Below, one piece after another: positions 24,482 through 50,466 of a stretch of DNA of 64,000 nt. A program made the position numbers and the translations under genes. The stretch covers positions 352,001 through 416,000 of the forward strand of contig CBDCWC010000003.1 in assembly GCA_965223295.1 (NCBI GenBank), read 5' to 3'. This stretch comes from Nitrospirales bacterium (GTDB taxonomy: Bacteria > Nitrospirota > Nitrospiria > Nitrospirales > UBA8639). The notes under the pieces are model-generated. The model did not search any database, had not been told where the DNA came from, and worked only from the letters and a program-made list of their open reading frames with translations. Numbering within the stretch: the stretch's first letter is position 1; every line of letters begins with the position of its first letter.

Positions 24482-24899
24482 AAATCATTATCGGTATTAT
24501 TCATAGCCCAGTTATTAGCGGGGACATTTGTTCCTTTTAATTTCTCTCCACATCTCAATCTTTCTATTTTGGGAATTATCTCATTTTTTATATAGTCGTA
24601 CTCACCATCAGATATAGGCCTATTACTTGATGTATCAAATATACGAGCATTCATACTTATCGAATAAATAAGGGGCAAGGCGCTTTTTAAGATGTAAAAT
24701 TCAAGACTTCATCTGACAGTCGGTGACTCTTACTCGGTGTCAGTTTTCTCATAGTGTCAATGATCTCCTAAGCGGCCACGTGCTTCTCTTTGGCAAGTGG
24801 CACATGAAATGTTTGTGTGGGCCTTTTCCCGTAACAACACCGACCCAACTCAACCAGGAGTGATCCACTTATCTGCGACCAATAAGTCGTTCAACAAAA

Positions 24900-25761
24900 C
24901 GGGGCCACCTCTGATTCAAACCCTGCGCACCAGGTATTACTCGCTAAAACAAAAGCCCCATCGATCCTAAAATTGGATCTTTATCACTAAAGACCGTTAG
25001 AAAAGGCTTCTCAAAGGTCGTGAGTTGCTCAAAAGTCTCAGCGCATTCTTTTCTTTGTGTAGGCACTAAACGAGGGAACACTTTCGCACCTGCTTTGTAG
25101 GTATTGTCGGGAAAAGGTGCATCATAGGCACGAATGACCTCTCGACTTAGCTTGGTCGTGGTGGCCATATTGATAAGCTGCCCGATTTTCATTTCTGGGA
25201 TTACCTGAGAAAAAACATACCAGCCGCTAAAACCTACAAAGGTTTTTAGCATTGGCACGACCAAATCCTTCGCTGGTAAATTTTTATGTTTAGGGGGCTT
25301 ACCGGGCAAACCGGTGTTACCGGCTACAACTCGAGAAAACCAATCGGGATGTTTGGCGACGATTCTTAAACCAATGAGACCACCCCAATCCTGACAAAAT
25401 AAATTAATATTTTTTAAGGCTAAGGTTTCCATAAAGTTTTCCATAATATCCAAGTGGAACTGAAAACTGTAATCGCTCTGCTTTACAAACTTATCGGACT
25501 TACCAAAACCGATTAAGTCTGGCGCAATTGCACGAAAGCCTGCATCGGCAAAAATAGGAATCATTTTTCGATATAAATACGACCAACTGGGTTCGCCATG
25601 CAACATTAAAACGATCTCACCATCCTTGGGTCCTTCATCAACATAGTGCATACGCAGGCCATCGATATCTACGTATTGTTAGGCTGGAAGGGATAATCCT
25701 CTAGATTTTCGAAACGCTCTTCTGGAGTGCGAATGACTTCCTTATATGAATACGTAGCCAT
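24900..25761 (-). pseudogene. Haloalkane dehalogenase pseudogene
   Basis: IRTPEERFENL, frameshift near 25675, then MHYVDEG, HGEPSWSYLYRKMI, QDWGG; TAG at 24944 followed in frame by RVIPGAQG; no C-terminal His motif seen. Confidence 0.8.
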
Positions 25762-25886
25762 AAGCTTTCTTTTTAGCTCATGGAATCTTTTTAAAGACTC
25801 TTCCGCATCCAGTTTTCGTTACTGACACTACATGGAATCTTTTTAAAGATGGTTTTCACTGACACTACAACAGAAGATCCAGTCGA

Positions 25887-26294
25887 TTAGCTCATCGGCA
25901 AGGGTGCTTCGTCCATTAGATGTAATATGCCTCGAACAATACGATAAAGCACCCAAAGCCCCGTGAAAATAATAATCACGATTGCGACAGGGATGCCCAC
26001 AACGGTAACAAACATCAAACCCGCAAGCACAATGGCGAAAGCCGCATACCAGAACGTTGTTATCATCCAAGAGAAGTGAGACTCAAGATACGTACCTCTA
26101 GCGTCACCTCGCTTAGCGTAACTTAAAATAACCGCAATAATAGAAGGCCAGCCCGTGAGAAAAGCAGTCACCACAAAGGCCTGAGTCATGACACCAGTCA
26201 AGGCACTAAAGCCATGCAAGGCATAAATAATATAAGCCACGCCCACCAAACCCGCACTAGGGGCCCCATCAATAAACAACTGTTTATCTGGCAT
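25887..26294 (-). CDS. Small membrane protein (DUF4870-like)
   Basis: IIAVILSYAKR...YLESHFSWMITTFW...WVLYRIVRG; AGGAG RBS. Confidence 0.75.
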   Translation of the reverse strand: MPDKQLFIDGAPSAGLVGVAYIIYALHGFSALTGVMTQAFVVTAFLTGWPSIIAVILSYAKRGDARGTYLESHFSWMITTFWYAAFAIVLAGLMFVTVVGIPVAIVIIIFTGLWVLYRIVRGILHLMDEAPLPMS

Positions 26295-26621
26295 TTTACT
26301 TACTCCTGTTCTTTAAAGGTCGCCTAACTCACAGCAATTCTACGTGTCCTTTGGGGTAACTCACAATCATCAAAGCCGGCGCCAACCAAAAATCAGCTTG
26401 GTCGTCGCACTGTAGATCAATTAAGGCTCGTGGACGGCTCAGCTGAAGAGGCAGAGCAGTCAGACGGGAAGCAGCTTTTCGAAGTCCTGTTTGTTCGTCT
26501 TGTAATTTTCTTATTCTCCAAATCCTTGCAAACCGGATACAGCTTGAGCCAGTAAGTTTCTTCTGTAGGTGTTATATAGGTTACTGCACTGGTAGTCTTT
26601 GAGCTATACATTAATCTGTAT

Positions 26622-26639
26622 ATATACATTAATGTATAT
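26622..26639. promoter_or_regulatory. Palindromic operator upstream of TA operon
   Basis: Perfect palindrome ATATACATTAATGTATAT 2 nt before the toxin ATG; a related imperfect site lies just upstream. Confidence 0.55.
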
Positions 26640-26641
26640 TA

Positions 26642-26914
26642 ATGTGGGTAGTTTATGAGAAGAGACCGGTCTTAAAAATTCTTGATCGGCTTCCTTCTGA
26701 TGTTTTATTAAAGTATGAAGCTTGGAAAAGGATCGTCGAGTTAGAGGGTCCGATAGGTCTTCGGTCTATTAAGGGGTTTCACGATGAAGCCTTAAAGGGG
26801 AATTGGAAAGGCTATCGATCATCCAGATTAGGCAAGAAATGGCGCGTGATTTACCATATTGCGAAAGGGCAACTCGAAGTGTACGTCGTTGAAGTCATGG
26901 CACACACGTATTAA
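26642..26914 (+). CDS. RelE/HigB-family toxin
   Basis: GFHDEALKGNWKGYRSSRL...WRVIY; toxin-first arrangement. Confidence 0.85.
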   Translation: MWVVYEKRPVLKILDRLPSDVLLKYEAWKRIVELEGPIGLRSIKGFHDEALKGNWKGYRSSRLGKKWRVIYHIAKGQLEVYVVEVMAHTY

Positions 26915-26929
26915 CCTGGGAGAATCCAT

Positions 26930-27196
26930 ATGGCGATGAATAAAAAGGAATTCGTGCGAGCCAAAGTGAATCGTAAGATTACACCTGGCGAAATGCTACG
27001 GACCCTAAGGGAATTACAAGAATTCACACAAAAAGAACTTGCGAGTGCAACAGGAATCTCGCAATCCAATATCTCGGCTATGGAAAATGATAGGAGTCAA
27101 ATAGGCCGAGAACGGGCTTTGGTCTTAGCGAATGTGCTCAAAGTTCATCCCGCTGTGATTCTTTTCCCCGACTTTGACATTGCCCAATTTGCCTAG
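26930..27196 (+). CDS. Xre-HTH antitoxin (HigA-like)
   Basis: TPGEMLRTLRELQEFTQKELASATGISQSNISAMEN. Confidence 0.85.
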   Translation: MAMNKKEFVRAKVNRKITPGEMLRTLRELQEFTQKELASATGISQSNISAMENDRSQIGRERALVLANVLKVHPAVILFPDFDIAQFA

Positions 27197-27412
27197 GGCA
27201 AGAGCAAAAAGACCCCACAGTTCTTAAAGACCCCTAATCCCGCCGGGTTCACAAGCTTCCCTCTAGATTCCGGTTCAAGTTGTGAGTCGACTCTCCCTCT
27301 GTGCCCCGCGCCTACCCACATATACCACAATGCCCCCCGACGGGCCCAATCCAAGAACAATGAGCCGGTCAGCCCTCACTCACAGGAGATACGCCCGCCG
27401 GTCGCACAACCA

Positions 27413-27493
27413 CATCTGGGGATGGAATCCCCGATGAAGTTTTTGGTCCTTGGCGATTCTCTCAAAAAGGCCGTCTAAAATTCCTATTCCCAA
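27413..27493 (+). repeat. Module-boundary direct repeat, copy 1
   Basis: Exact 22-mer TGGCGATTCTCTCAAAAAGGCC at 27451, 34814 and 40268, with similar flanks. Confidence 0.8.
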
Positions 27494-27908
27494 AAGGACC
27501 ACAGGACATTAGTCAGTTTGCTGGAGTTCGCATCACTGGAAATATTCCTTTTGGACCATCTTTGCTCTAGCTTCCTGTTCAATCGCTACTTAGTCTGTAT
27601 CTTTTTAGAAAAAAATTTATCTGAAATGATACAGGATGATTAGTCTTTTCCTGATTTTTACGAACGCATCCATCAAGACCCCGCCTACCTAAGATTAGTG
27701 CTCTCACTAGAAATTTCACCCCATGGACTTTAGATAGACCAAATCTAGGCGCTGATGCCTTAACGAGACTTTTTCCCTTTTGAATCTCAGCCTAGATCTT
27801 GTGATCCAACCTAGAATTTTCACCCATTCCTGATTTATATTGCAGCCTTTGGCCTAGGTGAAAGAATCCTACTCTTCTCCGCTCAGGAGTAAAAACAAGG
27901 AGGTTCCC

Positions 27909-28118
27909 ATGGCAACAGGTCCTTGTGATTTCTTCATCAATGCTGCACACCGCGGAAACCCTGCTACCGAGGTCTTCGATCTTGACGTAGATGCACTCAA
28001 AGGTGTCTCAACCGAGGACAAGCAGAACCTGAAAGACCCCTTTGGCGTGATGACTATTAACGATCTTGGCCGAAACCACTTCTCGCGCACAACCGTGCAA
28101 TCCTTGAAAATAGTGTAG
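27909..28118 (+). CDS. Small hypothetical protein
   Basis: AAGGAGG RBS then ATG; ALKGVS...LKDPFGVMTINDLGRN resembles small conserved HhH-like proteins. Confidence 0.55.
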   Translation: MATGPCDFFINAAHRGNPATEVFDLDVDALKGVSTEDKQNLKDPFGVMTINDLGRNHFSRTTVQSLKIV

Positions 28119-28569
28119 ACATCGGTCATAACCTAAGTTCTGTCGCGAGTACACCATCGATTTTTAAAAGCTCTGACCGATTGCTGGCATTCCAAGGTGA
28201 GGGCCAAAAACATTTTTGCAGGAGATTGATTGCCTCACACCAATATCTTTATCTGCCCTTCCTTGATTGTGCCCTTCACTTCAAAACCGGCTAATATTCA
28301 TTGAGTCCCATGCGCACAAAGAATGAATGCTTCGGTAAATCATCAAATACGTGCCATTTTATTTACAGAAAATAAAGCTTACATATCTAATAATATCGTG
28401 TTTGAAATAATGGCCATTGTTATATTTCAAAGAATCCGATACGGTGCACATGGACGTTCCAAGACGAGGCATTACCTTGGGCCAACACTTTCTTATTGGA
28501 TGTCTGAATAAAGAATTTTTATAGAAAGCATTATTCATTATCAAATTTCATCAAATTACGGAGGGGAAC

Positions 28570-31497
28570 ATGAGTCGTCTTTCACTTGCGTTATCAAAAA
28601 CCACTTTTCGCAGCCGAAAGAATGTTGAACGTACTCTGAAGAAGATCAATTACGATCCTGTAGAATTGGCCCCTGCTTTCCTAAATATATGTAATGAAAG
28701 TCAAGAGAATGGTGTAAAGCTAGCTGAAGCCTACGCCGTTGGACTAAAAGATTCCGAGCAGCATCGTGAAGTGTTTCAGCAGGTTTCATTAATGCCAAAA
28801 ACAGTACGCAAATCCTTCATCAAAGGGTATTGCAATGTGGGACAGGGTCGAGGCGTCGTGCATGCCATCAGTCAATTACCTCGGACACAGGGGCGCACAC
28901 TTATGGAAGATTTTGTAATAAAAGAGGACAAATCGAAGAATGAAGCTGCTATTGAGGAAGTTTTGTATTGGTTACGTGATGCGGGCAGAGAAATGCGAAG
29001 ACTTGAAGCGGACCATGCCCAATCAATACCGCTTGCCGGAAGTGATTCTGCTGTAATTGAATTCTTTGAGGATGTTGCTGATGCAATTTCTGATGCCGTA
29101 ACTGCAGTGGTTGATGCAATTGTGAGCGTTGCGGAAACGCTAGCCGAAGCAATCGTTGACGTTGTCAACTGGGTGGCTGAAGAAGTGGCCGATCTTGTTC
29201 GAGCCTTAATAGAAGCTGGCAAGACTATCTTCGATCTATTAGAAGCAGCTGTTCAGACTGGTTATCAACTTGCGAAGAAGATAATAAAGGCTTTGGAGGA
29301 CGTTGGAAAGGCAATGCGGGAGATTCTTGAATCAGCATTCAATTTAGCTAAGGATGCTCTCGTTACTGTATTGAAAGCAATTGACCAGTTGGGACGTACG
29401 TTGGGTGAACTTCTCGCGGAGCTTGCGACGAAGACATTTGATATTGTCAGAAAGGGTATCGAGGCATTGTTGGAAATTGGAAAATCAATTGGAAATATTC
29501 TGCAGCAGGCGCTGGAATTTGGTGCAACATTAATCACAAATACCGTCAGAACGCTCTTAGAAGTAGGGAAAACAGCGCTAGAAATACTGGTGGCTGCAGT
29601 CACCCGCCCTGGTCAATTATTCGATCAAGTCGTCGCGTCGCTCAAAAATCTTGGTAAAACCGTCACGGAACTTTTTGATGATGTAGTGAACGCTGGCGCT
29701 GACCTTATCCGCGAGGTTGCTGAAGCAGCAGCCAATGTAGGAACGGCCATTGCAGAGTTTACATCGTATATAGCCCAAGCCACTATTGAGGTTGCAACCA
29801 AGATTGTAGAAGGGTTACTAAAAGCAGGGAAAACACTAGTAGACATGGTAGCTTCCATCGCCCAACACGGATTTGAGGCAATAAGGAAGGTTGTTGATTC
29901 TGTCTTCAAGCTAGGAAAAAGCTTTATCGGTCTGCTTCGTGATGTGGCAAAACTTGCTTTTGATTCGCTTAAAGATGTTGTGCGTGCCGCTTTTGATCTA
30001 GGGAAGACGATAGCAGAGTTCACACTTTCGATGGTGGAATTCACCTATCGCACGGCCGCGAGGTTCATCCAAGCTGCTCTGGAGGTTGGTGCAACTGTGG
30101 CTGAAGTGCTCGAGAGCGTGGTCTCGAAGACATATTATGTGCTGCGTAAGATTGTAAATGGGGTACTGCAGGCTTTGGGGCCTGTCGGAGATATTTTTCA
30201 GTGGTTAATAGATCGTGGAGAGGAGCTAGCTTCGAAATTATGGCGTGAAACAGTTCTTGCAATCCGCTTTGTAAAGAAAAGTGTTACCGAGGTGTTGGAT
30301 TGGGCTTTTGCCAAGGGTCAAATTTTTTTAGATCGAATGATAGAAATTGTTGAAGATATCGGTGAAGCAATAATTGACATAATCGAGTGGGCGCAAGCTA
30401 CTGGTGATGCAGCTCTTGAGGCGCTAGGGGAGGCAACCGTTCGAGCGCGCAACTCGGTAAATTACGTTCTCAGCTATCTTGAAAAGGATCTTATCCCTGG
30501 TATAGCCAAGTTTGTGAAGGGTGTTCTTCAAGCCGGCTATGAAATTGGACGACTGGTTGCCTGGATGGCAAGCCGTAGCCTTCAGATCGTTACCGAGGTT
30601 GTTAAGGCGTCTCTTGAGGCGGGAGTTACCTTGGCGGTACTAATTACAGAAACAGTAGCGCATCCTGACCAAGCATTAGAGAATCTTTTGAGAGCTGCCC
30701 GCACTCTGGGGCAAACACTTGAGGATATCTATCAGGCCGTTATTGTAGAAACAGAAGAGCAATTTCTGGAACAAGTGACGCTGACCTTAAACAACCTAGA
30801 AGAGCCAGTCAGAGATATAATTGAAGCAGTTGCTGAAACAGCCACGGGAGCAATAAGTGCCACTATTAGTATTCTCCTGAACGAATTAGCTACTTATAGA
30901 CCGCTGACAGAAAATGAGAAAATGGACGCTAGAGTTGTCTATGGTGATACCATTGACCTCGAAAACACCTATATTTCTGCTGAGAGTTTAGTAAACAAAA
31001 TCATTTTCGGCATCCAAGACTGGGCCACAGGTAATCCTACCTCACGTGCATTTGTCACGAATAACCTCATTAATTTTGATGTTAATGAGGCAATTGATAT
31101 TGATGGCCAAGGCACTTTAGGAGTTAAGAGATCTACATTCATTCATGAATTGAGTCACGTATGGCAATCCGAAGTTGAAGGACCTTTTTATATGTCAGAA
31201 GCCATTCATGCACAAGCTGTAGGTGGTGGCTATAACTATGGATATAACGAATCTCTGGGGAATATCGCTGTGCCCATAGACTATATTGGAACTACAGAAA
31301 TGCTAAATAATGGTTTTTCGACAGGAGAAGGAGGCCAGGATGCACTCAATACAGCCGCTGGAGATTTCGATGAATTCAATCGTGAGCAGCAAGGGCAGAT
31401 TGCCATGCACTACTTTGTCAGGAGAGTGCTACTTAATCAAACTCCAACAGAGTATGAACCTTGGCAACCCTATGTTAATGCTATACAAGCAGCATAA
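28570..31497 (+). CDS. 975-aa protein: about 18 tandem 29-aa helical repeats plus C-terminal HExxH (DUF4157-like) metallopeptidase domain
   Basis: Repeats of type ALxxxGKTIxELL at 29-aa spacing; RPLTENEK...FIHELSHVWQ...FNREQQG. Confidence 0.75.
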   Translation: MSRLSLALSKTTFRSRKNVERTLKKINYDPVELAPAFLNICNESQENGVKLAEAYAVGLKDSEQHREVFQQVSLMPKTVRKSFIKGYCNVGQGRGVVHAISQLPRTQGRTLMEDFVIKEDKSKNEAAIEEVLYWLRDAGREMRRLEADHAQSIPLAGSDSAVIEFFEDVADAISDAVTAVVDAIVSVAETLAEAIVDVVNWVAEEVADLVRALIEAGKTIFDLLEAAVQTGYQLAKKIIKALEDVGKAMREILESAFNLAKDALVTVLKAIDQLGRTLGELLAELATKTFDIVRKGIEALLEIGKSIGNILQQALEFGATLITNTVRTLLEVGKTALEILVAAVTRPGQLFDQVVASLKNLGKTVTELFDDVVNAGADLIREVAEAAANVGTAIAEFTSYIAQATIEVATKIVEGLLKAGKTLVDMVASIAQHGFEAIRKVVDSVFKLGKSFIGLLRDVAKLAFDSLKDVVRAAFDLGKTIAEFTLSMVEFTYRTAARFIQAALEVGATVAEVLESVVSKTYYVLRKIVNGVLQALGPVGDIFQWLIDRGEELASKLWRETVLAIRFVKKSVTEVLDWAFAKGQIFLDRMIEIVEDIGEAIIDIIEWAQATGDAALEALGEATVRARNSVNYVLSYLEKDLIPGIAKFVKGVLQAGYEIGRLVAWMASRSLQIVTEVVKASLEAGVTLAVLITETVAHPDQALENLLRAARTLGQTLEDIYQAVIVETEEQFLEQVTLTLNNLEEPVRDIIEAVAETATGAISATISILLNELATYRPLTENEKMDARVVYGDTIDLENTYISAESLVNKIIFGIQDWATGNPTSRAFVTNNLINFDVNEAIDIDGQGTLGVKRSTFIHELSHVWQSEVEGPFYMSEAIHAQAVGGGYNYGYNESLGNIAVPIDYIGTTEMLNNGFSTGEGGQDALNTAAGDFDEFNREQQGQIAMHYFVRRVLLNQTPTEYEPWQPYVNAIQAA

Positions 31498-31511
31498 CAT
31501 CTTAACTCCTC

Positions 31512-32426
31512 ATGGTCATAACAATTGTCACTCCAGCTTCGGCCATAAGGCCACTGGAACCACTACTGCAAGCATACCGCCGAAAGAACTATTCCGTATG
31601 CTTTGAGATAGCAAAAGATTTCTCAATGTTGCCTCAGTTTTTACAGAGGATTACAGAAAAAACGGATGCCACATTAGTTATTGGCCCACGAAAACGATCC
31701 CCCAGGACAGCCATACGTGGGCCTGTATTAAGGTGTGGTGGGGGAAAGTTGATCCCTGTTGGATATGTTCCCGATATGGGAGGGAAAGCCCTAAATGTTT
31801 TTGCTCAAACAGCAGCCCATATTCATCAACGAGTACCCGCATTACAACCTATTGCTATTCTTTCTCAATGGAATCCGCAATATCTGAGACTCGCAACCCG
31901 AATAGAAGACCTTCTCCGAATACAAAAAAACCCTGTATTTCGTTGGACAAGTGATTTAATCCTTCGGGAAGACATGGTTCCTGGCCTAAGATCGGGGTTA
32001 GCTGCTGCTGTGTATGTTGGACATGGTCGTCCTGTTGGCTGGGTGGGATATCGGGGAACCCGCATTCATCATCTTGCAGGGAGTGTTGGGGAACCTTTAG
32101 GAGCACTCATATCTCTTTGTTGTCGTACGGCCAGTCGAAAACGTGTAGGTCTATCGTTCTCAGAAGCAGTACCGATGCAGGGTATTGCTGGTTCTGCTTT
32201 TGGCTCAGTCACAGACACGCTGCATATAAATAATACTCGCTGGGCAGTACGAATCTGTGCAGCTCTTAAACGCGGTGCAACGCATATAGGGGAATTAATA
32301 GTAAATGCACTACCTTTTGACTCAGAAGTAGTTAATGAATACCGTCTCTTAGGTGACCCTGTGGCTCCACTTTTCGGAGCTTCGCAGGCGGTTCAACGGG
32401 CGCAGACAATTAAAGTTGCTCACTAA
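31512..32426 (+). CDS. C25/gingipain-like (clan CD) cysteine peptidase
   Basis: YVGHG and SLCCRT His/Cys dyad contexts; terminal YRLLGDP as in C25 peptidases; no signal peptide. Confidence 0.65.
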   Translation: MVITIVTPASAIRPLEPLLQAYRRKNYSVCFEIAKDFSMLPQFLQRITEKTDATLVIGPRKRSPRTAIRGPVLRCGGGKLIPVGYVPDMGGKALNVFAQTAAHIHQRVPALQPIAILSQWNPQYLRLATRIEDLLRIQKNPVFRWTSDLILREDMVPGLRSGLAAAVYVGHGRPVGWVGYRGTRIHHLAGSVGEPLGALISLCCRTASRKRVGLSFSEAVPMQGIAGSAFGSVTDTLHINNTRWAVRICAALKRGATHIGELIVNALPFDSEVVNEYRLLGDPVAPLFGASQAVQRAQTIKVAH

Positions 32427-32461
32427 AATGCTGCTATGAGACAACCTGGTATGCCGACACT

Positions 32462-32725
32462 ATGAATTCTCTAAATTGTAGAGACCGTGAGGAAGTTCTT
32501 GCTCTATTGGTGCGTGAAATGAGAGAAGTGAAAAGTGAATTACCCGAAACAATCGAAATGGACATGAATTTCGTCATAGATCTTGGGCTTGATTCTATTG
32601 ATCTAGCCGAATATGTGGCCAGAATCGAACAGACTTTTGGGATACAGGTCTCAGATGATGAATGGAAGAGCCTAGCTTCTCTAAGAATTGTGGTCGAATA
32701 CGTCGAGAAACGGCTGTCTGAGTGA
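32462..32725 (+). CDS. Acyl carrier protein
   Basis: DLGLDSIDL phosphopantetheine Ser motif; acidic, 87 aa. Confidence 0.92.
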   Translation: MNSLNCRDREEVLALLVREMREVKSELPETIEMDMNFVIDLGLDSIDLAEYVARIEQTFGIQVSDDEWKSLASLRIVVEYVEKRLSE

Positions 32726-33855
32726 ATGTAGTGATTACAGGCCTGGGTGCCATAACTCCACTTGGGGACACTCCAAATGTCCTTTGGGAATCTTTGCTAG
32801 CGAAGAAATGTGCAACACGCGAATGGCCAGATTTAAAACAAGAAGGGTTTCGCAGTACTGCTGCCTGTCGAATTCAAAGTCTAGAGGAAAAAATACAAGG
32901 CCGTGGTCGGCAGATGGCCATTTTGGCAGCCATGCAAGCAATCAACCATTCAAAACTGAAGCTCCGAGAAGATGTTGGAATATTTATTGGAAGCACGATG
33001 GGTGAAAGCGAAGCATTTGAGAAAGCAGCTGAAGGGCACTCTCTGGTTCTGGAAGATGCTGTTGCCAGCGCTTTCCCAAAAGCAGTTCAGGCCGCACTAC
33101 AGATTAAAGGTCCACTCCGGGCATATGGAACAGGATGTGCCGCTGGCAATTATGCCATAGGAGCTGCAGCCGACGCAGTCAGACACGGAATGGTTAAGGC
33201 TGCAATAGCAGGTGGAGTCGAACCTTTTTCACGGATCGCAATGGTAGGCTTCAGCCGATCCCGGGCGATGTCAGACGACTTTTGCCGTCCCTTTGATCAC
33301 CAGCGTCGAGGTATGCAGTTGGGAGAGGCTGCTGCGTTTGTTGTTCTAGAGTTGGAAGACGAGGCAAGGCAACGCAATGCGCTTCCCTTAGCTACGGTCC
33401 AATCCTTGGGTCTATCATGTGATGCATACCATCCTACTGCTCCCAAACCTGATGGAGCAGGGATGGCAACAGCGATGTACCAAGCATGTCACTTGGGCGG
33501 AATAGATCCGCGAGAGGTAGATTGGATCTGCGCTCATGGGAGTGGAACCCAAACTTCTGATTCAGCAGAAGCTCGAGCGATAGAGACCGTCTTTTCTCAT
33601 AAACCCGCCGTTTCAGCTATCAAAGGTGCCCTTGGCCATTCACTTGGCGCATCGACGGCTGTGGAGACTATTGTTACTGCGCTGGCCTTGCGCTACAGAA
33701 TCCTCCCTCCAACAGTCAATCTCCAAAAGATTGATCCAGAGATGAATCTAAATATTATTCAAGAAACCTGCTTAGCTTCAGATTTGAAATGGGCACTTAA
33801 TTGCGGCTATGCCTTTGGTGGAATAAATTCTGCTCTCTTGATGGGGCAAGCATGA
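32722..33855 (+). CDS. Beta-ketoacyl-ACP synthase (FabF-like)
   Basis: VVITGLG, catalytic GCAAG, AHGSGT, KGALGHSLGA, AFGG; GTGA overlap with ACP. Confidence 0.9.
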   Translation: MNVVITGLGAITPLGDTPNVLWESLLAKKCATREWPDLKQEGFRSTAACRIQSLEEKIQGRGRQMAILAAMQAINHSKLKLREDVGIFIGSTMGESEAFEKAAEGHSLVLEDAVASAFPKAVQAALQIKGPLRAYGTGCAAGNYAIGAAADAVRHGMVKAAIAGGVEPFSRIAMVGFSRSRAMSDDFCRPFDHQRRGMQLGEAAAFVVLELEDEARQRNALPLATVQSLGLSCDAYHPTAPKPDGAGMATAMYQACHLGGIDPREVDWICAHGSGTQTSDSAEARAIETVFSHKPAVSAIKGALGHSLGASTAVETIVTALALRYRILPPTVNLQKIDPEMNLNIIQETCLASDLKWALNCGYAFGGINSALLMGQA

Positions 33856-34475
33856 TGCAAGCTTGGATTGCAAATTGGGGCAAAAATAATTGCGAAAAGA
33901 TGCATTTCCCAAAGGCAGCTGATTGGATAGTGGAACAAGTAAAACTCTTGCTACCCAAGCCCCATATCCCAACTCGAACAGGTATTTATGTTGCTACTGA
34001 AGATGTTGGCGCGGAAGCTTCCCAAGGAATGTGGGCCGAATGTTTACAACAAGGAGCTGGTTTCGCAAATCCACGAACTTTCCCTTGGACACTTTCCAGC
34101 AGCATAGCTAGTCATATAGCTATCAATTTGAATATTCAAGGAGCAAGTTACACGATCATAGGGAAAAGTCGTGTAGTAGGCGATATTCTTCAACATGCCT
34201 TGCACGATTTATCCTTCAGAGGTATAGATTGTGCATTACTTGTTGGTTTGGAAATACTTAATAGGACATGTTTCGCAGGAATTTGTTTAACACAATCAAC
34301 TACCCGTCAATCACCTTTACAATTTGAATGGCATAATGAATGTAAGAGTGCTTTTCAAGAAAACGAATCAGCTGCAGAATTATTTGCCAATATATGTTTA
34401 TCGTTAGACAAGAATTGTCCACTTCATTTTGTTAATCCAGAATTAGGATGTATCTTGATCAACCAACGCACTTAA
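33852..34475 (+). CDS. Truncated ketosynthase-like (chain-length-factor-like) protein
   Basis: NPRTFPWTLSSSIASHIAINLNIQG matches KS N-domain pattern; no catalytic Cys motif; ATGA overlap with KS. Confidence 0.6.
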   Translation: MMQAWIANWGKNNCEKMHFPKAADWIVEQVKLLLPKPHIPTRTGIYVATEDVGAEASQGMWAECLQQGAGFANPRTFPWTLSSSIASHIAINLNIQGASYTIIGKSRVVGDILQHALHDLSFRGIDCALLVGLEILNRTCFAGICLTQSTTRQSPLQFEWHNECKSAFQENESAAELFANICLSLDKNCPLHFVNPELGCILINQRT

Positions 34476-34776
34476 GCAAACTCGAATCTGGAGGAATTGG
34501 TCCGAATTTTTCTGTTCTAGACCAATGTCAATCATTCACTCGCTAGCTGAATTCTTTAAAATACGTGGAAGCCTATGATTTCAATCAAGACGCTATTCTC
34601 GCTCCGCGAATGCGGGATTAGATGAGATAGCAGGTTGGGAACCGACTCTCCCTTTTTGTCCCGTGTGCCCATCCACTCGCACACACCATCATGAAACAAG
34701 AGGCTGACCCGATCCGCGACCAAGGGGCCGGGCATACCGCCGCCGGCAAGGTCAACGCTCGCTTGTCGGACAGCAA

Positions 34777-34856
34777 CATCTGGGGATGAATCCTCAAAGA
34801 GGTCTTTGATATGTGGCGATTCTCTCAAAAAGGCCGTGTAAAATTCCTATTCCCAA
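34777..34856 (+). repeat. Module-boundary direct repeat, copy 2
   Basis: CATCTGGGGATGAATCC...TGGCGATTCTCTCAAAAAGGCCGTGTAAAATTCCTATTCCCAA. Confidence 0.8.
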
Positions 34857-34936
34857 CCCCTTTCCATTTTTTGTGGGAGAACATCGGGCTCCCCCACCAC
34901 CTTCGAAAACCACGCCAGCTCATCAAGACTAACTTT

Positions 34937-35300
34937 GGTTGTGTCGCAACAAGTGCTCGAAGACGACGCAATAGCTATTAACCATCGATGTCCCACTACA
35001 AAATGCGTAGAACGGTTCAGTGAGAGTTGGCTTCTTTGTCCCTAGTGTGTACATCTCCACATTCTTAATCATCACCATGACTTCCATTCCCGCTAATGTT
35101 CGTTGGGCTGCATAACAGTCCTCAAATCTCAACATCGTCCGAGTGAGCCGTTTTCTAGGTCAGTAGTTTTGTTCGACAATATTGTTCAGGTATTCGCATT
35201 GGGGGATTCTTATCCGGTTTTAATAGTCTCTATTAACCTGCCGAAGGCCCACATAGATTGGGCTCACATTGATCAATTTCGACCAGCCTTATGATGTCAT
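34937..35300 (-). pseudogene. IS6-family transposase remnant (3' part)
   Basis: QCEYLNNIVEQNY*...TMLRFED...RTLAGMEVM resembles IS6 KYLNNxVEQDHR region; end GGTTGTGTCGCAAC resembles IS6 IR. Confidence 0.7.
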
Positions 35301-35407
35301 TTTACTAAATCGATTTCCTAAAAAAGTGTAAGTCGGCCTTGGCATCTCTTATCGCATCATTATCGAACCCTCCACCAGACGCCCGACTTGCTACCTGAAG
35401 ATCAATT

Positions 35408-35446
35408 TGTATCTGAATAGATAAAAATTGTATCTAAAAAGATACG
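35408..35446. promoter_or_regulatory. Tandem palindromic activator sites (candidate bEBP enhancer)
   Basis: TGTATC-N6-GATAAA and TGTATC-N6-GATACG, 21 bp apart. Confidence 0.5.
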
Positions 35447-35551
35447 AATTTATGGTGCACATTTTGCTTTTCGTCTTCTTCTAGTTACCCGTGTTCCAAT
35501 ATTTTCAAGGCCATGAAACATTCTGAATACAGTTTTTCATTGTTCGCCGGC

Positions 35552-35568
35552 TTGGTATAAGTTCTGCA
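35552..35568 (+). promoter_or_regulatory. Putative sigma-54 (-24/-12) promoter
   Basis: TTGGTATAAGTTCTGCA = GG-N10-GC. Confidence 0.55.
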
Positions 35569-35741
35569 CGTTAAAAGGATCATCTGTTTCCTTCTTTATG
35601 CAAAAGAAAGAAGGGTTCGTGCAAATAGCCCGAAGTATTGTTTCTGATTTTCTAACCTAATTTCCTTTCCAAGACATAATATTTTGTAAATTTTCTCAAA
35701 AAACAATTTTTACATTACCACTTCACTAAAAGGAGGGAGTC

Positions 35742-36272
35742 ATGGACAAAGAATCACAAGAAATCCTAAAGCGAGTCGAGGAGCGATTGACGCGATTAGA
35801 GGCAAGCGCCACAGCGGGCCCAGCGGCAGGCGGATTCGGAGCACCTGGTGGTACGGTAGTTGATCCTGCCCCATGGGGGCCGGGCGGTGGGTTTGTTCCA
35901 CGATGGCCAGTTCCCAATCCAATAGCCGATCCTGCCCCTTGGTGGCCGGGTGGTGGGTTTATTCCACCGCGATGGCCAGTTCCCAATCCAGTAGCCGATC
36001 CCGCCCCATGGCCTCCTGGTGGGTTTGTCCCACGGTGGCCAGTTCCCCCTATTGTGGCTGATCCCGCACCATGGGGTGGCGGCTTTGGCGGCGGCACAAT
36101 TACTCGTCCGCCGATCGGTTCAATCGGTGATCCTCCCCCCATGGACTTGGGCCGGTTAAATCTTGCACAACTTGAATCATCCATGCATTCGATTAATGCT
36201 GAAAAAGCCCGTCTCGACTCCTTGGAGAAACTAATTAACAATCAAATCGGGAAACTCAAGAATCCAGGCTAA
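35742..36272 (+). CDS. Putative multi-core RiPP precursor (DPAPW repeats between two coiled-coil-like segments)
   Basis: AAGGAGG RBS; 4x DPAPW plus DPPPM; 3x PRWPVP; directly upstream of two radical SAM genes. Confidence 0.8.
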   Translation: MDKESQEILKRVEERLTRLEASATAGPAAGGFGAPGGTVVDPAPWGPGGGFVPRWPVPNPIADPAPWWPGGGFIPPRWPVPNPVADPAPWPPGGFVPRWPVPPIVADPAPWGGGFGGGTITRPPIGSIGDPPPMDLGRLNLAQLESSMHSINAEKARLDSLEKLINNQIGKLKNPG

Positions 36273-36449
36273 CATCCACACGGAGATTCGGCTCAGGGCT
36301 CTATCTTCTTGATAGAGCCTGATCCAACATTGCAACTGGAGAGACTCGAGTAAATCTTTCACATACGCACGCTAGAGACACATGTTCATGTGAAACCGCC
36401 GTATACTTAAGTGATTTGATGACCTGTAAGGGAAAGGGATAGGTGTGCT

Positions 36450-38129
36450 ATGCCAACTATGGCGCAAAATCATACGACTAAATCGCGAAAAGTGCTTCTC
36501 ATCGGCTTCCAGGACCAAGACAATCTCGGGTTGCGTTATCTGATGTCTAACATCAATGCTTCGCATCATCAGGCCAGCATCATGACCTACGGTTCCGACC
36601 CTGATCGGATCCTAGAACGAATCCGCCAAGATGAGCCCGATGTCGTCGGATTCTCGCTTATCTTTCAGTATATGGCGCCAGACTTTAGTCAGGTGATCAA
36701 AGCGTTGCGGGAAAAGGGCGTCACTGCACATATCACCATAGGCGGGCACTACGCCAGCTTCGAGCCCAAGGAGATTCTCCGGCAGACTCCTGAACTCAAT
36801 TCCGTGGTCCGATTCGATGGTGAGACCACCCTTGTCAAACTGTTGGATAGCTTGGCCGTTGGCACAGATTGGCGAACCCTTCCGGGGATCGCATTTCGTT
36901 CGGACAACGGCGAAATCACGACTACCCCTCTCGCTCAACCCGTTGAGGACTTGGATACCCTACCCTGGCCAGATCGACAGTCGATAAATTATGAAGGGCA
37001 TTGCATGCCCACGGCTTCAATTCTCGGAAGCCGGGGATGCCCATGGGACTGCTCGTTTTGCAGTATCCGCCCTTTTTACGAGGAACAAGGAGGGAAGCTC
37101 CGTCGTCTACGCAAACCCAGAGCTGTGGTTGACGAAATGATTGATCTCCATAAAAATCGAGGAGTCCCGATTTTCTTATTTCAGGACGATGATTTCCTCG
37201 CAGGAGGAAAGCGAGCGAAACAATGGGCAGTAGACATTGCAGACATCCTCGCAGCCGAGGGTCTAAACGGGGAGATCGCGTTCAAAATCAGTTGCCGCTC
37301 GGACGAAATCGACGAATCGATCATCGAGCAATTAATGAAAGGTGGGCTCACGCACGTGTATATGGGTGTGGAGTCGGGAGACGAACAAGGCCTCCTCAAC
37401 ATGAGCAAGCGGCTAAAACCAGAAGCGCATTTAGAAGCTGGTCGAATCCTAAAGCGTTTGGGGCTATCCTACGACTTCGGCTTCATGTTGATCGATCCCT
37501 ACACAACCTTCGACAGCATTCGCACGAACATCGATTTCTTAGAGGCCTTCATTGGGGACGGCTGGTCGGTCGCGCCATTCTGCCGGATGCTGCCCTATGC
37601 CGGAACACCAATCAAGCGTAAGCTTGAGCAAGAAGGCCGATTGACAGGTACACCATTTGAGCCGGACTACAAACTTCTCGATCCAAAGCTAGATCTGTTT
37701 TACGATTGGATGGTCGAGGCATTTTACGAACGTAATTTCACCAACCAGGGATTGTGCCACATTCTCCGTGGATTACTATTTGAGGCACACCTGCGATTGT
37801 CGACCCGGAACCGAGTGAACGACGCGCAACGCGCCTACATTCACCACCTGACAGCCGTCTGCAACCGGGTTGCATGCTACACACTTCGTTCAGCCATAGA
37901 TTATATTGAGGCCACACCTCTGTCGGAGCTTAAACAGGATCGCCACTATCTAGACGGTTTGGCCGTGCATGAGAAAGAACAGGAAATGAGGCTAAATAAC
38001 GAAGTGGCACAGTACTATGAGTGGGTCCACCAAGATTTCAGCCAGGTACCGGGCCCAGTAGGCAGCTTCGAAAACTCCTGGACGTTTCACAATAATGACC
38101 GTGAAGCGGAAGGAGTGGGAGCAGCCTAA
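36450..38129 (+). CDS. Cobalamin-dependent radical SAM enzyme
   Basis: B12-binding N-domain (NLGLRYL...VGFS...IGGHYAS), SRGCPWDCSFC, MGVESG. Confidence 0.9.
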   Translation: MPTMAQNHTTKSRKVLLIGFQDQDNLGLRYLMSNINASHHQASIMTYGSDPDRILERIRQDEPDVVGFSLIFQYMAPDFSQVIKALREKGVTAHITIGGHYASFEPKEILRQTPELNSVVRFDGETTLVKLLDSLAVGTDWRTLPGIAFRSDNGEITTTPLAQPVEDLDTLPWPDRQSINYEGHCMPTASILGSRGCPWDCSFCSIRPFYEEQGGKLRRLRKPRAVVDEMIDLHKNRGVPIFLFQDDDFLAGGKRAKQWAVDIADILAAEGLNGEIAFKISCRSDEIDESIIEQLMKGGLTHVYMGVESGDEQGLLNMSKRLKPEAHLEAGRILKRLGLSYDFGFMLIDPYTTFDSIRTNIDFLEAFIGDGWSVAPFCRMLPYAGTPIKRKLEQEGRLTGTPFEPDYKLLDPKLDLFYDWMVEAFYERNFTNQGLCHILRGLLFEAHLRLSTRNRVNDAQRAYIHHLTAVCNRVACYTLRSAIDYIEATPLSELKQDRHYLDGLAVHEKEQEMRLNNEVAQYYEWVHQDFSQVPGPVGSFENSWTFHNNDREAEGVGAA

Positions 38130-38210
38130 TGATTCACAATCGTAACCTTCACAGCCGTAACCATATCCACACCAGTAGTTGTCTCATATACTGAGAAATA
38201 CTCACTATCG

Positions 38211-40193: not shown

Positions 40194-40240
40194 AGTTGAA
40201 AAACAAAGATCCCCTGGCAAGACCACGGGGAATCGCAAGT

Positions 40241-40307
40241 TGAATCCTCGATGAGGTCTTTGGTCCTTGGCGATTCTCTCAAAAAGGCCTTTTACAACTC
40301 CCATTCC
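40241..40307 (+). repeat. Module-boundary direct repeat, copy 3
   Basis: TGAATCCTCGATGAGGTCTTTGGTCCTTGGCGATTCTCTCAAAAAGGCC. Confidence 0.8.
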
Positions 40308-40529
40308 TGGATGACAAAGGCAGGAAAATCGAATGAGGAGGAAAAACATCAAGACAAAAGAGGCCGCAGACTATCGTTGGTTATCACCCACCGCTCTCAC
40401 GCTTTACTATCCCCTAAAAGAGCCGGTGAATAATTTGTGCGGATTGCCTAAAATGGTCTTCAGAAGACTATCATCAACAGGAGAGAACTGGTCAAAATTG
40501 CATCCAGTAAAGCCGCACCTATTTTGATG

Positions 40530-40633
40530 AGCGGAGCATAAGCTGAGCACGGGAAAATAGCGAGAACGCTACTGGCGGCCTTTGTAGCTTATCGAGTTAC
40601 TCGGGCGGAGTAGGCAACGGCTTTTTTCAACAT
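40530..40633 (-). repeat. Degenerate partial copy of family-B repeat
   Basis: GCGGAGC...TGAGCACGGGAAAATAGCGAGAACGCTACTGGCGGC...GGCTTTTTTCAACA. Confidence 0.5.
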
Positions 40634-45139: not shown

Positions 45140-45144
45140 GGGCC

Positions 45145-47613: not shown

Positions 47614-47741
47614 GAAAGAGAGTCCTCCTTGATTACCTGTACAAGCATACCAAGAACTGAAAAAACCTGGCTATCTTCAAAGCAGAATGAGAGGAAACAA
47701 AGAATGGACGCAGAATGGGAGAAACAGATTCTGTTGACAAA

Positions 47742-50439: not shown

Positions 50440-50466
50440 CTCCTCAACGGTGCCCGTCGGCTCCGC

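Follow-up and report, generated by a model that had tools for sequence, protein, structure and literature searches.

The window, by which we mean the whole 64,000-nucleotide stretch analyzed here, carries a five-gene cassette with an obligatory core of only two genes, one for a 975-residue giant protein and one for a gingipain-like (C25-like) enzyme. The three genes that follow, for an acyl carrier protein (ACP), a ketosynthase (KS) and a short KS-like partner, are a clade-specific add-on. The cassette is a self-contained, horizontally transferred module, and no described system shares its make-up. We propose, tentatively, that the gingipain-like enzyme matures the giant protein, by cleaving it, by transferring an ACP-borne acyl chain to it, or both.

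Linkage, spread and mobility of the cassette

The five ORFs (28,570–34,475) all lie on the + strand with intergenic distances of 14, 35, −4 and −4 bp, exactly the co-orientation and gap sizes, including two 4-bp overlaps, given in a previous reading of the DNA letters alone (the sequence-only reading). The cassette is rare: a search with the C25-like protein across 185,579 species genomes located 54 loci. The five-gene order was identical in 45 of the 54, from at least eight phyla, which is far beyond chance; five others were truncated where a contig or locus ended, in one no partner gene was detectable, and three held the giant protein and C25-like genes only. The co-occurrence elsewhere that the sequence-only reading had proposed as a check thus took the form of strict synteny across phyla. 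In 53 of the 54 loci the gene immediately 5′ of the C25-like gene encodes the giant protein; the remaining locus begins at a contig end. The pairing also held in 9 of 12 divergent loci from metagenomes, and three were truncated at the start. No gene besides those of the cassette was conserved in the flanks of the loci.

The sequence-only reading had treated the five genes as one unit. They are indeed widely co-conserved, but only the first two are obligatory: ACP, KS and partner were found in none of these 12 metagenome loci, which form a deep sister clade (clade B) and of which six extend 1.8 kb or more downstream, and they were lost at least twice within the five-gene clade, in L009 and in L038/L043 (three loci), where a partner-profile search of the genomes detected no KS partner. 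Since the pair persists without these genes, lipidation cannot be the core function, and because the genes are clade-specific, any lipidation must be either optional or able to use housekeeping acyl-ACP.

In the window, the cassette resides in an 18.7-kb genomic island (21,953–40,625). The island flanks were syntenic in five of five complete genomes of the same genus, all of which lacked the interior; in one of them (G034) the flanks are 156 bp apart. The cassette was missing from all 60 relatives searched. The island also carries an IS256/Mutator transposase, an alpha/beta hydrolase, a toxin–antitoxin-like pair and two radical SAM genes. A direct repeat of ≈270 bp (repeat families D1, D4 and D5) brackets the cassette, with an upstream copy at 27,230–27,530 aligning to a downstream copy at 34,585–34,890 and a third, partial copy near the island end (40,242–40,310). 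Aligned together, the three copies had 69% identity per column on average. The repeat had 8 matches in the genome including the query, all on the + strand and mostly in pairs or triads; it showed no stable fold and matched no Rfam family.

The gingipain-like enzyme and the giant protein

The second gene (31,512–32,426, + strand) encodes a 304-residue Cys–His enzyme of the gingipain fold (clan CD, C25-like), with His171 at 32,022–32,024 and Cys204 at 32,121–32,123. Pfam Peptidase_C25 matched it just below the 23-bit cut-off (21.8 bits, E 1.2e-4). The predicted structure (pLDDT 92) matched RgpB in Foldseek with E 4e-12, and VIA-align superposed 289 of the 304 residues on RgpB with a Z of 30.2 and an rmsd of 2.9 Å. 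Judging by this model, the protein holds a complete gingipain-type catalytic domain. Its profile aligned with PorU and RgpB at the catalytic His-Gly and Cys motifs, and the invariant His171 and Cys204 were kept in both clades, in agreement with the clan CD fold that had been assigned to this ORF. As the genes co-occur elsewhere and this fold is present, the computational analysis returned nothing that refutes the sequence-only reading, which overall is partly supported.

The fold match to the gingipains RgpB/Kgp and to PorU (MEROPS C25, clan CD) covers the whole domain (Z 30.2 and 28.3), although identity is only 13–15%. Unlike these proteins, the enzyme has no signal peptide, prodomain, Ig-like domain or T9SS C-terminal domain, and is therefore predicted to be cytoplasmic; it also occurs far outside Bacteroidota, always paired with the giant protein. 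Among the best 150 of its 347 representative clusters, nearly all members were stand-alone proteins of ≈300 residues, and the longest had 460. PorU is described in the cited passages (PMC8545088, PMC4560394) as a C25-type T9SS sortase that cleaves its cargo and attaches A-LPS, so that members of the C25 family can act as transpeptidases joining a protein to a lipid-linked acceptor.

The giant protein (28,570–31,497, + strand, preceded by a ggagggg ribosome-binding site) consists of an N-terminal domain, 29-residue helical repeats and a C-terminal zinc metallopeptidase domain, and was conserved from end to end in an alignment with 48 relatives. The basic N-terminal domain (residues 1–150; 28,570–29,019, + strand) has a near-invariant motif, GVVHAISQLPR (R105), in an alignment covering both clades; it had no sequence relative in the PDB and no Atlas match. 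Many Bacteroidota and Betaproteobacteria copies have an additional K/S/T/P-rich N-terminal extension. At least 11 tandem repeats follow (residues ≈197–515; 29,158–30,114, + strand), and the register table places an invariant Gly at position 21 of each repeat (G217...G507), spaced 29 residues apart and mostly within G-K-T/S. The period is perfect in the window's protein and common to all relatives. The Lys of the repeated G-K turns was not invariant, and no clear acyl acceptor site was found there.

The C-terminal domain (residues 776–975; 30,895–31,494, + strand) is a VgrG2b/Tpe1/DUF4157-type zinc metallopeptidase domain with H859-E860-x-x-H863 and E939. The motif reads HELSH in the window, and HE[LM]xH was kept in 53 of 53 relatives; the repeat-containing HExxH protein seen in the first reading is thus present as described. 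A profile search of the PDB matched 6h56, the VgrG2b effector domain (E 1.2e-11), spanning the R-x-L-x-x-E, HExxHVWQ and F-N-x-E-Q-Q-G motifs. Pfam eCIS_core (PF13699, equivalent to DUF4157) matched 22 of 31 members of the family; the window's own protein had no match. According to the cited part of Wood 2019 (PMC6899460), the VgrG2b domain is toxic in the periplasm, depends on its HExxH motif for this and may release lipoproteins. In contrast to the T6SS metallopeptidase effectors VgrG2b and Tpe1, the domain here is joined to a repeat region of ≈600 residues rather than to VgrG, does not occur in T6SS or eCIS loci, and has no conserved adjacent gene for a periplasmic immunity protein. Its similarity to these toxins and to tape-measure proteins also replaces the loose analogy to gasdermins made earlier, which has no sequence basis.

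The helical region (residues ≈155–780) matched phage tape-measure PHROGs at 4.9e-18, and four such families matched 28 of 28 members. Pairwise similarity was weak (24% identity, E 3e-7, gappy), and the composition of helical repeats may account for part of the resemblance. Phage tape-measure proteins that end in a lytic domain, such as T5 pb2, likewise combine a helical part with a C-terminal zinc peptidase; pb2 is cut between a hydrophobic stretch and its muralytic metallopeptidase motif, as stated in the cited excerpt (10.1101/2022.09.20.507954). The giant protein differs in having no tail genes nearby, in being essentially absent from viral contigs, and in having a VgrG2b-type peptidase with a dedicated clan CD enzyme encoded next to it. 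Given the tape-measure resemblance, one could take the cassette for a decaying phage-tail or tailocin remnant, or else suppose that the gingipain-like protein inhibits, chaperones or confers immunity to the giant protein's peptidase as its cognate factor, since an immunity gene usually comes after its toxin gene (in the cited portion of PMC6899460). This has the slimmest chance of the explanations considered: the catalytic dyad, retained in the two deep clades, favors enzymatic activity, no other tail gene lay beside the pair in the 54 and 12 loci, viral contigs gave one weak match only, and each of the five ORFs is intact, with conservation across phyla.

The helical region also matched Pfam Phasin_2 (E 1.6e-8, 35.1 bits against a threshold of 24.9), with weak apolipophorin- and BAR-type Pfam matches, and its Atlas neighbors carry Phasin_2. 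A Kyte–Doolittle scan found no hydrophobic N-terminal signal or transmembrane segment in the giant protein, the C25-like protein or the KS partner, consistent with the absence of signal peptides noted before, and the giant protein is predicted to be cytoplasmic. An amphipathic-helical cytoplasmic protein could, in the manner of a phasin or apolipoprotein, coat a membrane domain or hydrophobic inclusion built with the dedicated lipid, and the enzyme would trim or anchor it. Such a role is quite improbable, however, because it leaves unexplained both the invariant toxin-type HExxH domain and the two-gene systems without lipid genes, and a storage function would not typically show so rare an HGT-driven spread (54 loci in 185,579 species genomes).

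A defense or cell-death role had also been raised, in which infection would trigger the protease and the giant protein, once unleashed, would kill its host cell. In favor of this, the cassette is accessory, with a patchy distribution, its island carries an IS and a toxin–antitoxin-like pair, and CHAT and caspase-like clan CD proteases, which serve several defense systems, are structural neighbors of the enzyme model; at one locus, L017, the neighboring genes include caspase-like and viperin-like ones. We nevertheless consider abortive infection improbable. The gene neighborhoods gave it no consistent support: defense-type matches among 150 flank ORFs of 17 loci were scattered and mostly generic, and many loci lie between housekeeping genes such as miaA. 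PADLOC assigned no defense family to the C25-like protein, ACP, KS or partner, and only a helical ZorA-tail-like match to the giant protein. A sensor domain is absent, and VgrG2b-type domains are non-toxic in the cytoplasm, going by the cited part of PMC6899460.

ACP, ketosynthase and half-ketosynthase partner

The dedicated ACP (87 residues; 32,462–32,725, + strand) has Ser45 (32,594–32,596) in a DSID motif and matched Pfam PP-binding at 2.7e-10, with every NCBIfam ACP model below its equivalog cut-off; D44 and S45 were invariant in 32 of 32 sequences. The FabF-like KS (377 residues, GTG start; 32,722–33,855, + strand) matched both ketoacyl-synthase domains in Pfam/NCBIfam, and its Cys139/His272/His306 triad and Lys301 were invariant in 50 of 50 sequences. 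It reached 273 bits against the FabF equivalog cut-off of 494, showing that it is not the housekeeping FabF, and matched NCBIfam AmcF at 229 bits, also below cut-off. The partner (207 residues from an ATG overlapping the KS stop; 33,852–34,475, + strand) corresponds to the N-terminal half of a KS fold, with a weak match to the KS N-terminal domain and no catalytic Cys at the aligned position. Its relatives, of 130–233 residues, share the core FANPxxFPWTLAN...GPN.T. All three proteins are therefore what the first reading had taken them to be.

The closest solved chain to the KS was 9s5h_B (2.1e-74), followed by Iga11 (6kxd, 7.5e-55), and the partner profile matched the Cys-less chain 9s5h_C at 2e-8, with FabFs weaker; the best solved relatives are thus both chains of one entry, which may be the anammox KS/partner structure. 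The cassette shares an active KS, a Cys-less partner and its own ACP with KS/CLF-like heterodimers from outside aromatic PKS, such as anammox amxFabF2/amxFabFmut and ishigamide Iga11/Iga12; aryl-polyene ApeO/ApeC and cispentacin AmcF/AmcG are further examples with a dedicated ACP. Compared with these, the partner here is only an N-terminal half, a cyclase is lacking, and none of them is tied in a similar way to a protease and a giant protein. As noted before, Pfam and NCBIfam searches of the cassette found no ketoreductase (KR), dehydratase (DH), acyltransferase, thioesterase (TE) or exporter. The anammox heterodimer decarboxylates malonyl-ACP, thereby self-priming, and makes acetoacetyl-ACP, as given in the cited part of a preprint (10.64898/2026.05.19.726425).

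In five-gene loci the ACP gene was always directly 3′ of the C25-like gene, often with overlapping stop and start codons, and one sequence (P0118) is a single read-through C25–ACP ORF. Another apparent fusion, P0249, resembles a frameshifted gene call. Just past its catalytic Cys, the enzyme has a cluster of residues that mark the five-gene clade (C203, S208, R209 and R211).

The enzyme might only cleave and activate the giant protein, as in zymogen-type control, while ACP, KS and partner make a separate lipid or polyketide that is never attached, for example a membrane component, a cofactor or a protective lipid. Here the pair exists and persists without the lipid genes, every characterized relative of the enzyme fold is a peptidase or transpeptidase, and the usual products of KS/CLF-like pairs are free or lipid-bound. 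We regard this as rather unlikely, if far from negligible: the C25–ACP–KS–partner order is fixed across phyla in the five-gene clade, with overlapping genes; the cassette has no release enzyme (TE), reductase or transferase that could serve a free product, and none is conserved nearby; and the clade-specific residues adjoin the catalytic Cys.

Proposed maturation of the giant protein

In the proposal that we tentatively prefer, a minimal gingipain-fold Cys–His enzyme would act on the cytoplasmic giant protein, most likely maturing it through a Cys204 acyl-enzyme intermediate. By one route it would cut the giant protein, for instance so as to release the peptidase domain from the helical region, much like the cut in T5 pb2. 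By the other, in the five-gene clade, it would pass on an acyl chain, for which the dedicated ACP and the KS/half-KS pair would build their own acyl-ACP as donor; the pair would prime itself by decarboxylating malonyl-ACP and would borrow FabD/G/Z/I. NodF/NodE are likewise a dedicated ACP and KS that rely on housekeeping fatty acid synthesis, and similar donor logic holds for HlyC/HlyA (RTX) and class IV CdiC/CdiA, in which an operon enzyme lipidates a large effector from acyl-ACP. The cassette has no protein of the HlyC/TAAT family or like NodA; the candidate transferase has a protease fold, and the cassette itself would make the acyl donor. CdiC acylates CdiA, which raises the membrane affinity of the large effector, in the cited section of PMC8510554. 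We infer that the product here would be a matured, possibly lipidated, membrane-seeking effector that attacks the envelope.

Maturation is supported by the linkage of the two core genes, the lack of any other conserved flank gene, the whole-domain match to RgpB, the His/Cys dyad kept in both clades and, as precedents, PorU in the same fold family, the cleavage of T5 pb2 and the acylation of CdiA by CdiC; an effector role by the VgrG2b toxin domain and tape-measure matches; a real lipid module by the invariant KS triad and ACP Ser and the match to both 9s5h chains; and a link between enzyme and ACP by their fixed adjacency, the P0118 read-through and the clade-specific residues. Against this, ACP, KS and partner are dispensable for the pair, and an ACP thioester would be an unusual clan CD substrate, no such activity being known to us. 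The window's proteins fall under Pfam thresholds (C25 21.8 against 23 bits; no eCIS_core match), the pairwise tape-measure similarity is weak, and the G-K Lys varies. An effector would also need delivery, yet the giant protein showed no signal peptide or transmembrane segment in the Kyte–Doolittle scan, the host genome contained no contractile injection system (T6SS sheath, phage-type sheath or PF13699 match), and no immunity-like gene was conserved in the flanks. Since its make-up is without a described counterpart, the cassette may nonetheless represent a new route by which bacteria mature or lipidate a protein weapon.

The cassette and its genomic setting

The cassette occupies positions 28570–34475 on the + strand and consists of five ORFs. 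The first, with a ggagggg ribosome-binding site ahead of it, encodes GIANT, a 975-residue protein with sequence repeats and an HExxH motif. ORF2 encodes a gingipain-like Cys–His enzyme of 304 residues, here called C25-like, and is followed by genes for an ACP (87 residues), a KS (377 residues, GTG start) and a KS-like partner, or half-KS (207 residues, counted from the ATG overlapping the KS stop codon), all on the + strand. The gaps between the ORFs are, in order, 14, 35, −4 and −4 bp. The five-gene array, gaps and overlaps described in the sequence-only reading were thus all present in the sequence. Scans for promoters and terminators gave signals no better than shuffles.

Comparison with five complete same-genus genomes placed the cassette in an 18.7-kb island (≈21953–40625) that is absent from all five; in one of these, G034, the flanks of the island lie 156 bp apart. 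A search of 60 relatives, 36 of them from the same genus, did not find the C25-like gene. The island is bordered by an ABC transporter ATPase gene and a ComEA-like (HHH_3) gene and also contains an IS256/Mutator transposase (23132–24427), which is multi-copy and has many copies in relatives, an alpha/beta hydrolase, a YafQ-like/HTH pair (26642–27196), a radical SAM gene with a B12-binding domain (36450–38129) and a second radical SAM gene (38211–40193). The Pfam scan of ORFs of at least 120 residues, which covered four on the left side of the island (22059–26294), gave no integrase match.

The cassette is bracketed by a direct repeat of ≈270 bp (27230–27530 and 34585–34890), a third, partial copy of which lies near the right end of the island (40242–40310). 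The repeat has eight matches in the genome, including the query, all on the + strand and mostly in pairs or triads 1.4–7 kb apart. From this arrangement, cassettes may have accumulated in modular fashion at a repeated site. The repeats did not fold better than shuffles (z of −0.84, 1.0 and 0.06), and no Rfam family was found between 21000 and 50000 in the window, repeats included. An integron gene cassette was considered and rejected, since the bracketing repeats do not fold as attC sites would and no integrase was matched among the scanned ORFs of at least 120 residues.

Several other features of the window were recorded. Tandem repeats of 63–69 bp (D2 and D3, three to four copies each) lie at 35857–36100, between the cassette and the radical SAM genes, inside two overlapping ORFs at 35726–36241 (−) and 35742–36272 (+). 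A repeat peptide rich in Pro, Trp and Gly may be encoded here, which could serve as a radical SAM substrate. Two elements of ≈190 bp (≈46664–46852 and ≈47739–47937) have dozens of copies in same-genus genomes at 75–91% identity and look like MITE-type dispersed repeats. Four of the five same-genus genomes searched each contain two places that match the stretch at ≈50400–54400 and beyond with 87–90% identity, and the fifth contains one; this stretch, in which the GC content rises to 0.57, probably corresponds to a ribosomal RNA operon. A gene at 43817–45148 (−), within the conserved portion of the window, encodes a multi-haem cytochrome with an MtrC/MtrF-like domain and paired CXXCH motifs; it adjoins a rhodanese gene and a histone-deacetylase-family gene.

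Distribution and gene content of the family

A profile built from 27 relatives identified 347 representative clusters of the C25-like family among 1.84 billion representatives, and 274 relatives were found at E ≤ 0.001 in a 90%-clustered collection. Nearly all of the best 150 of the 347 clusters were stand-alone proteins of ≈300 residues. A pattern scan of 185,579 species genomes yielded 54 loci from Bacteroidota, Pseudomonadota (several classes), Acidobacteriota, Chloroflexota, Campylobacterota, Fibrobacterota, Gemmatimonadota and Actinomycetota. ORFs were called in these loci and searched with the five window proteins. The order GIANT–C25–ACP–KS–partner was found in 45 of the 54, confirming the co-occurrence that the sequence-only reading had proposed to look for in gene neighborhoods. 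Five loci were truncated by a contig or locus end (L010, L020, L033, L040 and L049), one had no detectable partner gene (L032) and three contained GIANT and C25 alone (L009, L038 and L043). Clustering of 1053 flanking ORFs revealed no further conserved gene beyond lineage-level synteny, which argues that the cassette is the whole unit.

A metagenome scan that used 11 divergent C25-like sequences added 12 loci. A GIANT homolog lay directly upstream of the C25-like gene in nine of these, and the other three loci start at the contig start. The GIANT proteins from these loci retain the motifs IHELxHVWQ and FNREQQ. ACP, KS and partner had no match at E ≤ 0.01 in any of the 12 loci, in six of which the sequence extends at least 1.8 kb downstream.

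A quick maximum-likelihood tree of 66 C25-like sequences (one of the original 67 was too short and was dropped) resolved two clades, A and B, at an SH-aLRT support of 100%. Clade A (55 rows) comprises 50 five-gene loci, two that are cut and three two-gene loci nested inside the clade, whereas its deep sister branch, clade B (11 rows), comprises six two-gene loci and five that are cut. Searched with the partner profile, the genomes of the three nested loci gave only one ordinary, distant KS frame of 368 residues. One of these loci, L009, has an IS integrase following C25. Because ACP, KS and partner are absent from clade B and from the nested two-gene loci, they are an addition to clade A that was lost at least twice. 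The five-gene unit of the sequence-only reading therefore held as a fixed gene order in clade A, but not as an obligatory set, since GIANT and the C25-like enzyme are the invariant module. This pair defines a compact family of 347 clusters. The tree is at odds with taxonomy and therefore indicates horizontal transfer, which points to spread of the family by this route across at least eight phyla.

Within clade A, the ACP gene always lies directly after the enzyme gene, often overlapping it, and in one case (P0118) the two form a single read-through C25–ACP ORF. A second apparent fusion (P0249) was discarded, as it looks like a frameshifted gene call.

Two divergent two-gene loci, L056 (7921–10530) and L057 (1687–2790), have a subtilase (Peptidase_S8) gene after the C25-like gene; in L056, the subtilase is followed by an autotransporter beta-domain gene, and a HipA kinase gene lies upstream. 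These neighbors may be an alternative group of accessory genes for the core pair.

Properties of the cassette proteins

The C25-like protein was modeled by AlphaFold from a 27-sequence alignment with high confidence (pLDDT 92, pTM 0.92). Foldseek matched the model to RgpB with an E-value of 4e-12, and VIA-align superimposed 289 of the 304 residues on RgpB with a Z-score of 30.2 and an rmsd of 2.9 Å. Lower scores were obtained with Kgp (Z 28.3), separase (16.5), CHAT (15.7), legumain (11.5) and caspases (≈11). The model has a caspase–hemoglobinase fold with the two-subdomain catalytic domain of the gingipain type, in agreement with the clan CD fold that had been proposed for this ORF. By sequence profile, the only PDB matches were PorU (E = 0.0056) and RgpB (0.0061), in alignments that bring the GHG and Cys motifs together. 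The Pfam Peptidase_C25 model (PF01364) scored 21.8 bits on the window protein, against a gathering threshold of 23; most C25-like homologs carry a precomputed PF01364 match.

The putative catalytic residues His171, in the GHG motif, and Cys204 are 33 residues apart, invariant in the family alignment and retained in the divergent subfamilies. The core common to both clades consists of Y168, G170, H171, G172, G176, Y180, H187, C204, T206, R278, G281 and P283; clade A proteins have in addition a second cysteine (C203) and S208, R209 and R211 directly after the nucleophile, so that clade-A-specific basic residues flank it. Gingipains and PorU are secreted or surface enzymes, whereas the C25-like protein has no signal peptide, prodomain or T9SS C-terminal domain: the catalytic domain spans all 304 residues and the N-terminus is not hydrophobic. 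It is a bare catalytic domain of the gingipain type, presumably cytoplasmic. A gingipain-like S1 pocket specific for Arg or Lys was set aside, as no acidic residue equivalent to theirs could be assigned from sequence.

The ACP matched Pfam PP-binding (2.7e-10) and ACP models of NCBIfam, and its Asp44–Ser45 pair is invariant (32/32). The KS matched both Pfam KS domains (1.4e-29 and 1.5e-28). Its Cys–His–His set, as originally described, is intact, with Cys139, His272, His306 and also Lys301 invariant in 50 of 50 sequences. On the NCBIfam FabF equivalog TIGR03150 it scored 273 bits, below the cut-off of 494, and it is therefore not the housekeeping FabF. The partner is a fast-evolving protein of 130–233 residues that corresponds only to the N-terminal half of a KS, with a faint match to the Pfam KS N-terminal domain. 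It retains the KS segment FANPxxFPWTLAN...GPN.T, and the alignment has neither a Cys nor a Gln column at the active-site position, which bears out the claim that it lacks the catalytic cysteine. KS/CLF heterodimers have a full-length thiolase-fold partner, whereas the cassette partner, which may pair with the KS, is only half of one.

The closest solved relative of the KS was chain 9s5h_B (2.1e-74) and that of the partner the Cys-less chain 9s5h_C (2e-8), with ishigamide Iga11 next. 9s5h may be the structure of the anammox FabF2/FabFmut heterodimer; no paper naming this PDB code was found in the full-text literature. FabF2/FabFmut is described as a KS/CLF-like heterodimer that decarboxylates malonyl-ACP and makes acetoacetyl-ACP (10.64898/2026.05.19.726425). 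The KS and half-KS, with their own ACP, could start and extend a chain using only the housekeeping FabD, FabG, FabZ and FabI, which would explain the absence of AT, KR, DH and ER genes. A dedicated ACP and KS working on housekeeping enzymes is the logic of NodF/NodE.

GIANT is conserved from end to end. Its basic N-terminal domain (residues 1–150), with the near-invariant motif GVVHAISQLPR, is common to both clades and had only chance-level profile matches in the PDB (E ≈ 0.5) and no match in the ESM Atlas. Many homologs carry a strongly basic, Lys/Ser/Thr/Pro-rich N-terminal extension of 30–100 residues, which the window copy lacks (loci L015, L016, L018, L022, L027, L029, L030, L035, L038, L041, L044, L046, L052 and L056); part of these extensions may be over-long ORF calls. 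Residues ≈197–515 contain at least 11 perfect 29-residue repeats, with an invariant Gly at position 21 (G217 to G507), usually followed by K-T/S, and a second G/T/P at position 6. The 29-residue period was found in every GIANT relative. Acylation at multiple lysines in the G-K turns was considered and rejected, since the Gly is structural and invariant and the Lys variable, one relative having only two GK.

The helical region of GIANT (residues ≈155–780) matched PHROGs of phage tail tape-measure proteins (TMPs), among them phrog_1272 (4.9e-18) and phrog_5493 (3.8e-17), and four such families were matched by all 28 GIANT relatives. Pairwise likeness to a genuine TMP was weak (24% identity, E = 3e-7), and one true TMP found in viral contigs was unrelated. 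No tail genes (chaperones, tube or distal tail protein) were found near GIANT in the 54 genome or 12 metagenome loci, and we regard it as highly improbable that the cassette is a phage-tail remnant, or that the C25-like protein is an inhibitor or immunity factor. Pfam Phasin_2 also matched the helical region, and the only ESM Atlas matches were Phasin_2 clusters of ≈1000 residues, apparently of the same family; a phasin-like structural role, for a protein that also carries a zincin domain, appears very unlikely.

The C-terminal ≈200 residues of GIANT include the invariant residues H859, E860, H863, VWQ, G871, Y874, E939, Q941 and R951, and HE[LM]xH is present in all 53 GIANT proteins of clade A and all 9 of clade B. 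A profile of this domain matched 6h56, the effector domain of Pseudomonas aeruginosa VgrG2b, in two stretches (E = 1.2e-11). The Pfam eCIS_core domain (PF13699, formerly DUF4157) matched 22 of 31 members at E-values up to 1 (best 1.9e-6), the window copy being unmatched. The VgrG2b domain is described as an HExxH-dependent toxin that is active only in the periplasm, has a periplasmic immunity protein and may free lipoproteins from membranes (Wood et al., PMC6899460), and DUF4157 as a toxin-linked core domain of eCIS (Geller et al., PMC8213781). Effectors of the VgrG2b/Tpe1 type are delivered by T6SS or eCIS, being fused to VgrG or encoded in loci of these systems, and have an adjacent envelope immunity gene, whereas neither was found for GIANT and no neighboring gene is conserved. 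Neither the T6SS sheath TssC (VipB) nor a phage-type sheath nor PF13699 was matched in the 100% complete host genome, and cargo of a contractile injection system was rejected for GIANT, as the host lacks sheath genes. GIANT itself is an acidic protein without TM segments.

The analogy to gasdermins drawn in the sequence-only reading was not borne out: no gasdermin-fold match was found for GIANT in Pfam or PADLOC, and its domains are TMP-like and zincin. A role in defense or abortive infection appears improbable. PADLOC gave a helical, ZorA-tail-like match (2e-8) for GIANT and none for the other four proteins, and defense matches were scattered among 150 flanking ORFs from 17 loci. Caspase-like, SduA-like and viperin-like (radical SAM) genes follow the cassette in a Campylobacteraceae locus (L017, 12462–16073; PADLOC), the only examined locus with the flavor of a defense island.

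Proposed function and significance

We infer that the C25-like enzyme acts on GIANT. The reading we favor, tentatively, is that the enzyme would cleave GIANT and/or transfer to it a chain carried on the ACP, and that the matured GIANT would be an envelope-attacking effector. In RTX toxin activation (HlyC/TAAT), the operon-encoded acyltransferase HlyC lipidates a large effector using acyl-ACP. For the cassette this is an analogy only, and no Pfam or NCBIfam match to the HlyC family was found among the five proteins. Further precedents are the T5 tape-measure protein pb2, reported to be cut between a hydrophobic stretch and a muralytic metallopeptidase motif (10.1101/2022.09.20.507954), PorU, of the same fold family, described as cleaving proteins and joining them to a lipid-linked acceptor (PMC8545088, PMC4560394), and CdiC/CdiA, where an operon-encoded acyltransferase is reported to use acyl-ACP to lipidate a large effector (PMC8510554). 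Maturation of GIANT is favored because of these precedents, the position of the ACP gene after that of the enzyme, the read-through ORF and the clade A residues at the nucleophile.

Several points speak against maturation of GIANT in this way. The lipid genes are dispensable. The enzyme might instead be a protease only, with the ACP, KS and partner making an independent product, which we consider somewhat unlikely given that ACP follows the enzyme throughout clade A. No acceptor residue for acylation stands out on GIANT, and no export route or immunity gene was visible.

A bolder form of the maturation reading, which we think unlikely, is that the gingipain-fold enzyme is a cytoplasmic lipid-transferase and maturase and GIANT a lipid-anchored, self-inserting zinc-peptidase weapon. 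An acyl chain built by the KS and half-KS on the cassette ACP would pass to a thioester on Cys204 and be loaded onto the tape-measure-like GIANT during or after clipping, and the product would breach the envelopes of neighboring cells without a dedicated secretion or injection machine. If true, this would be a form of enzymology new to clan CD and a new way in which bacteria lipidate proteins, and the product would represent a new class of effector that acts autonomously.

The component families, gingipain/PorU, the VgrG2b-type toxin domain, tape-measure helices and KS/CLF/ACP, are well studied. Searches of the full-text literature for the fixed combination (C25, ACP, ketosynthase and DUF4157) returned no description, consistent with the original statement that no pathway of this composition is known. 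The families are known and the system itself appears to be new, with a function that is proposed here. If the enzyme cleaves or lipidates GIANT, known clan CD chemistry would be extended, the deployment of a periplasm-acting peptidase without T6SS or eCIS would be explained, and a small, tractable system of two to five genes would become available for acyl transfer by a protease fold. Should the enzyme be no more than a protease dedicated to maturing a new type of effector, this conservative outcome would still add a widespread toxin family.
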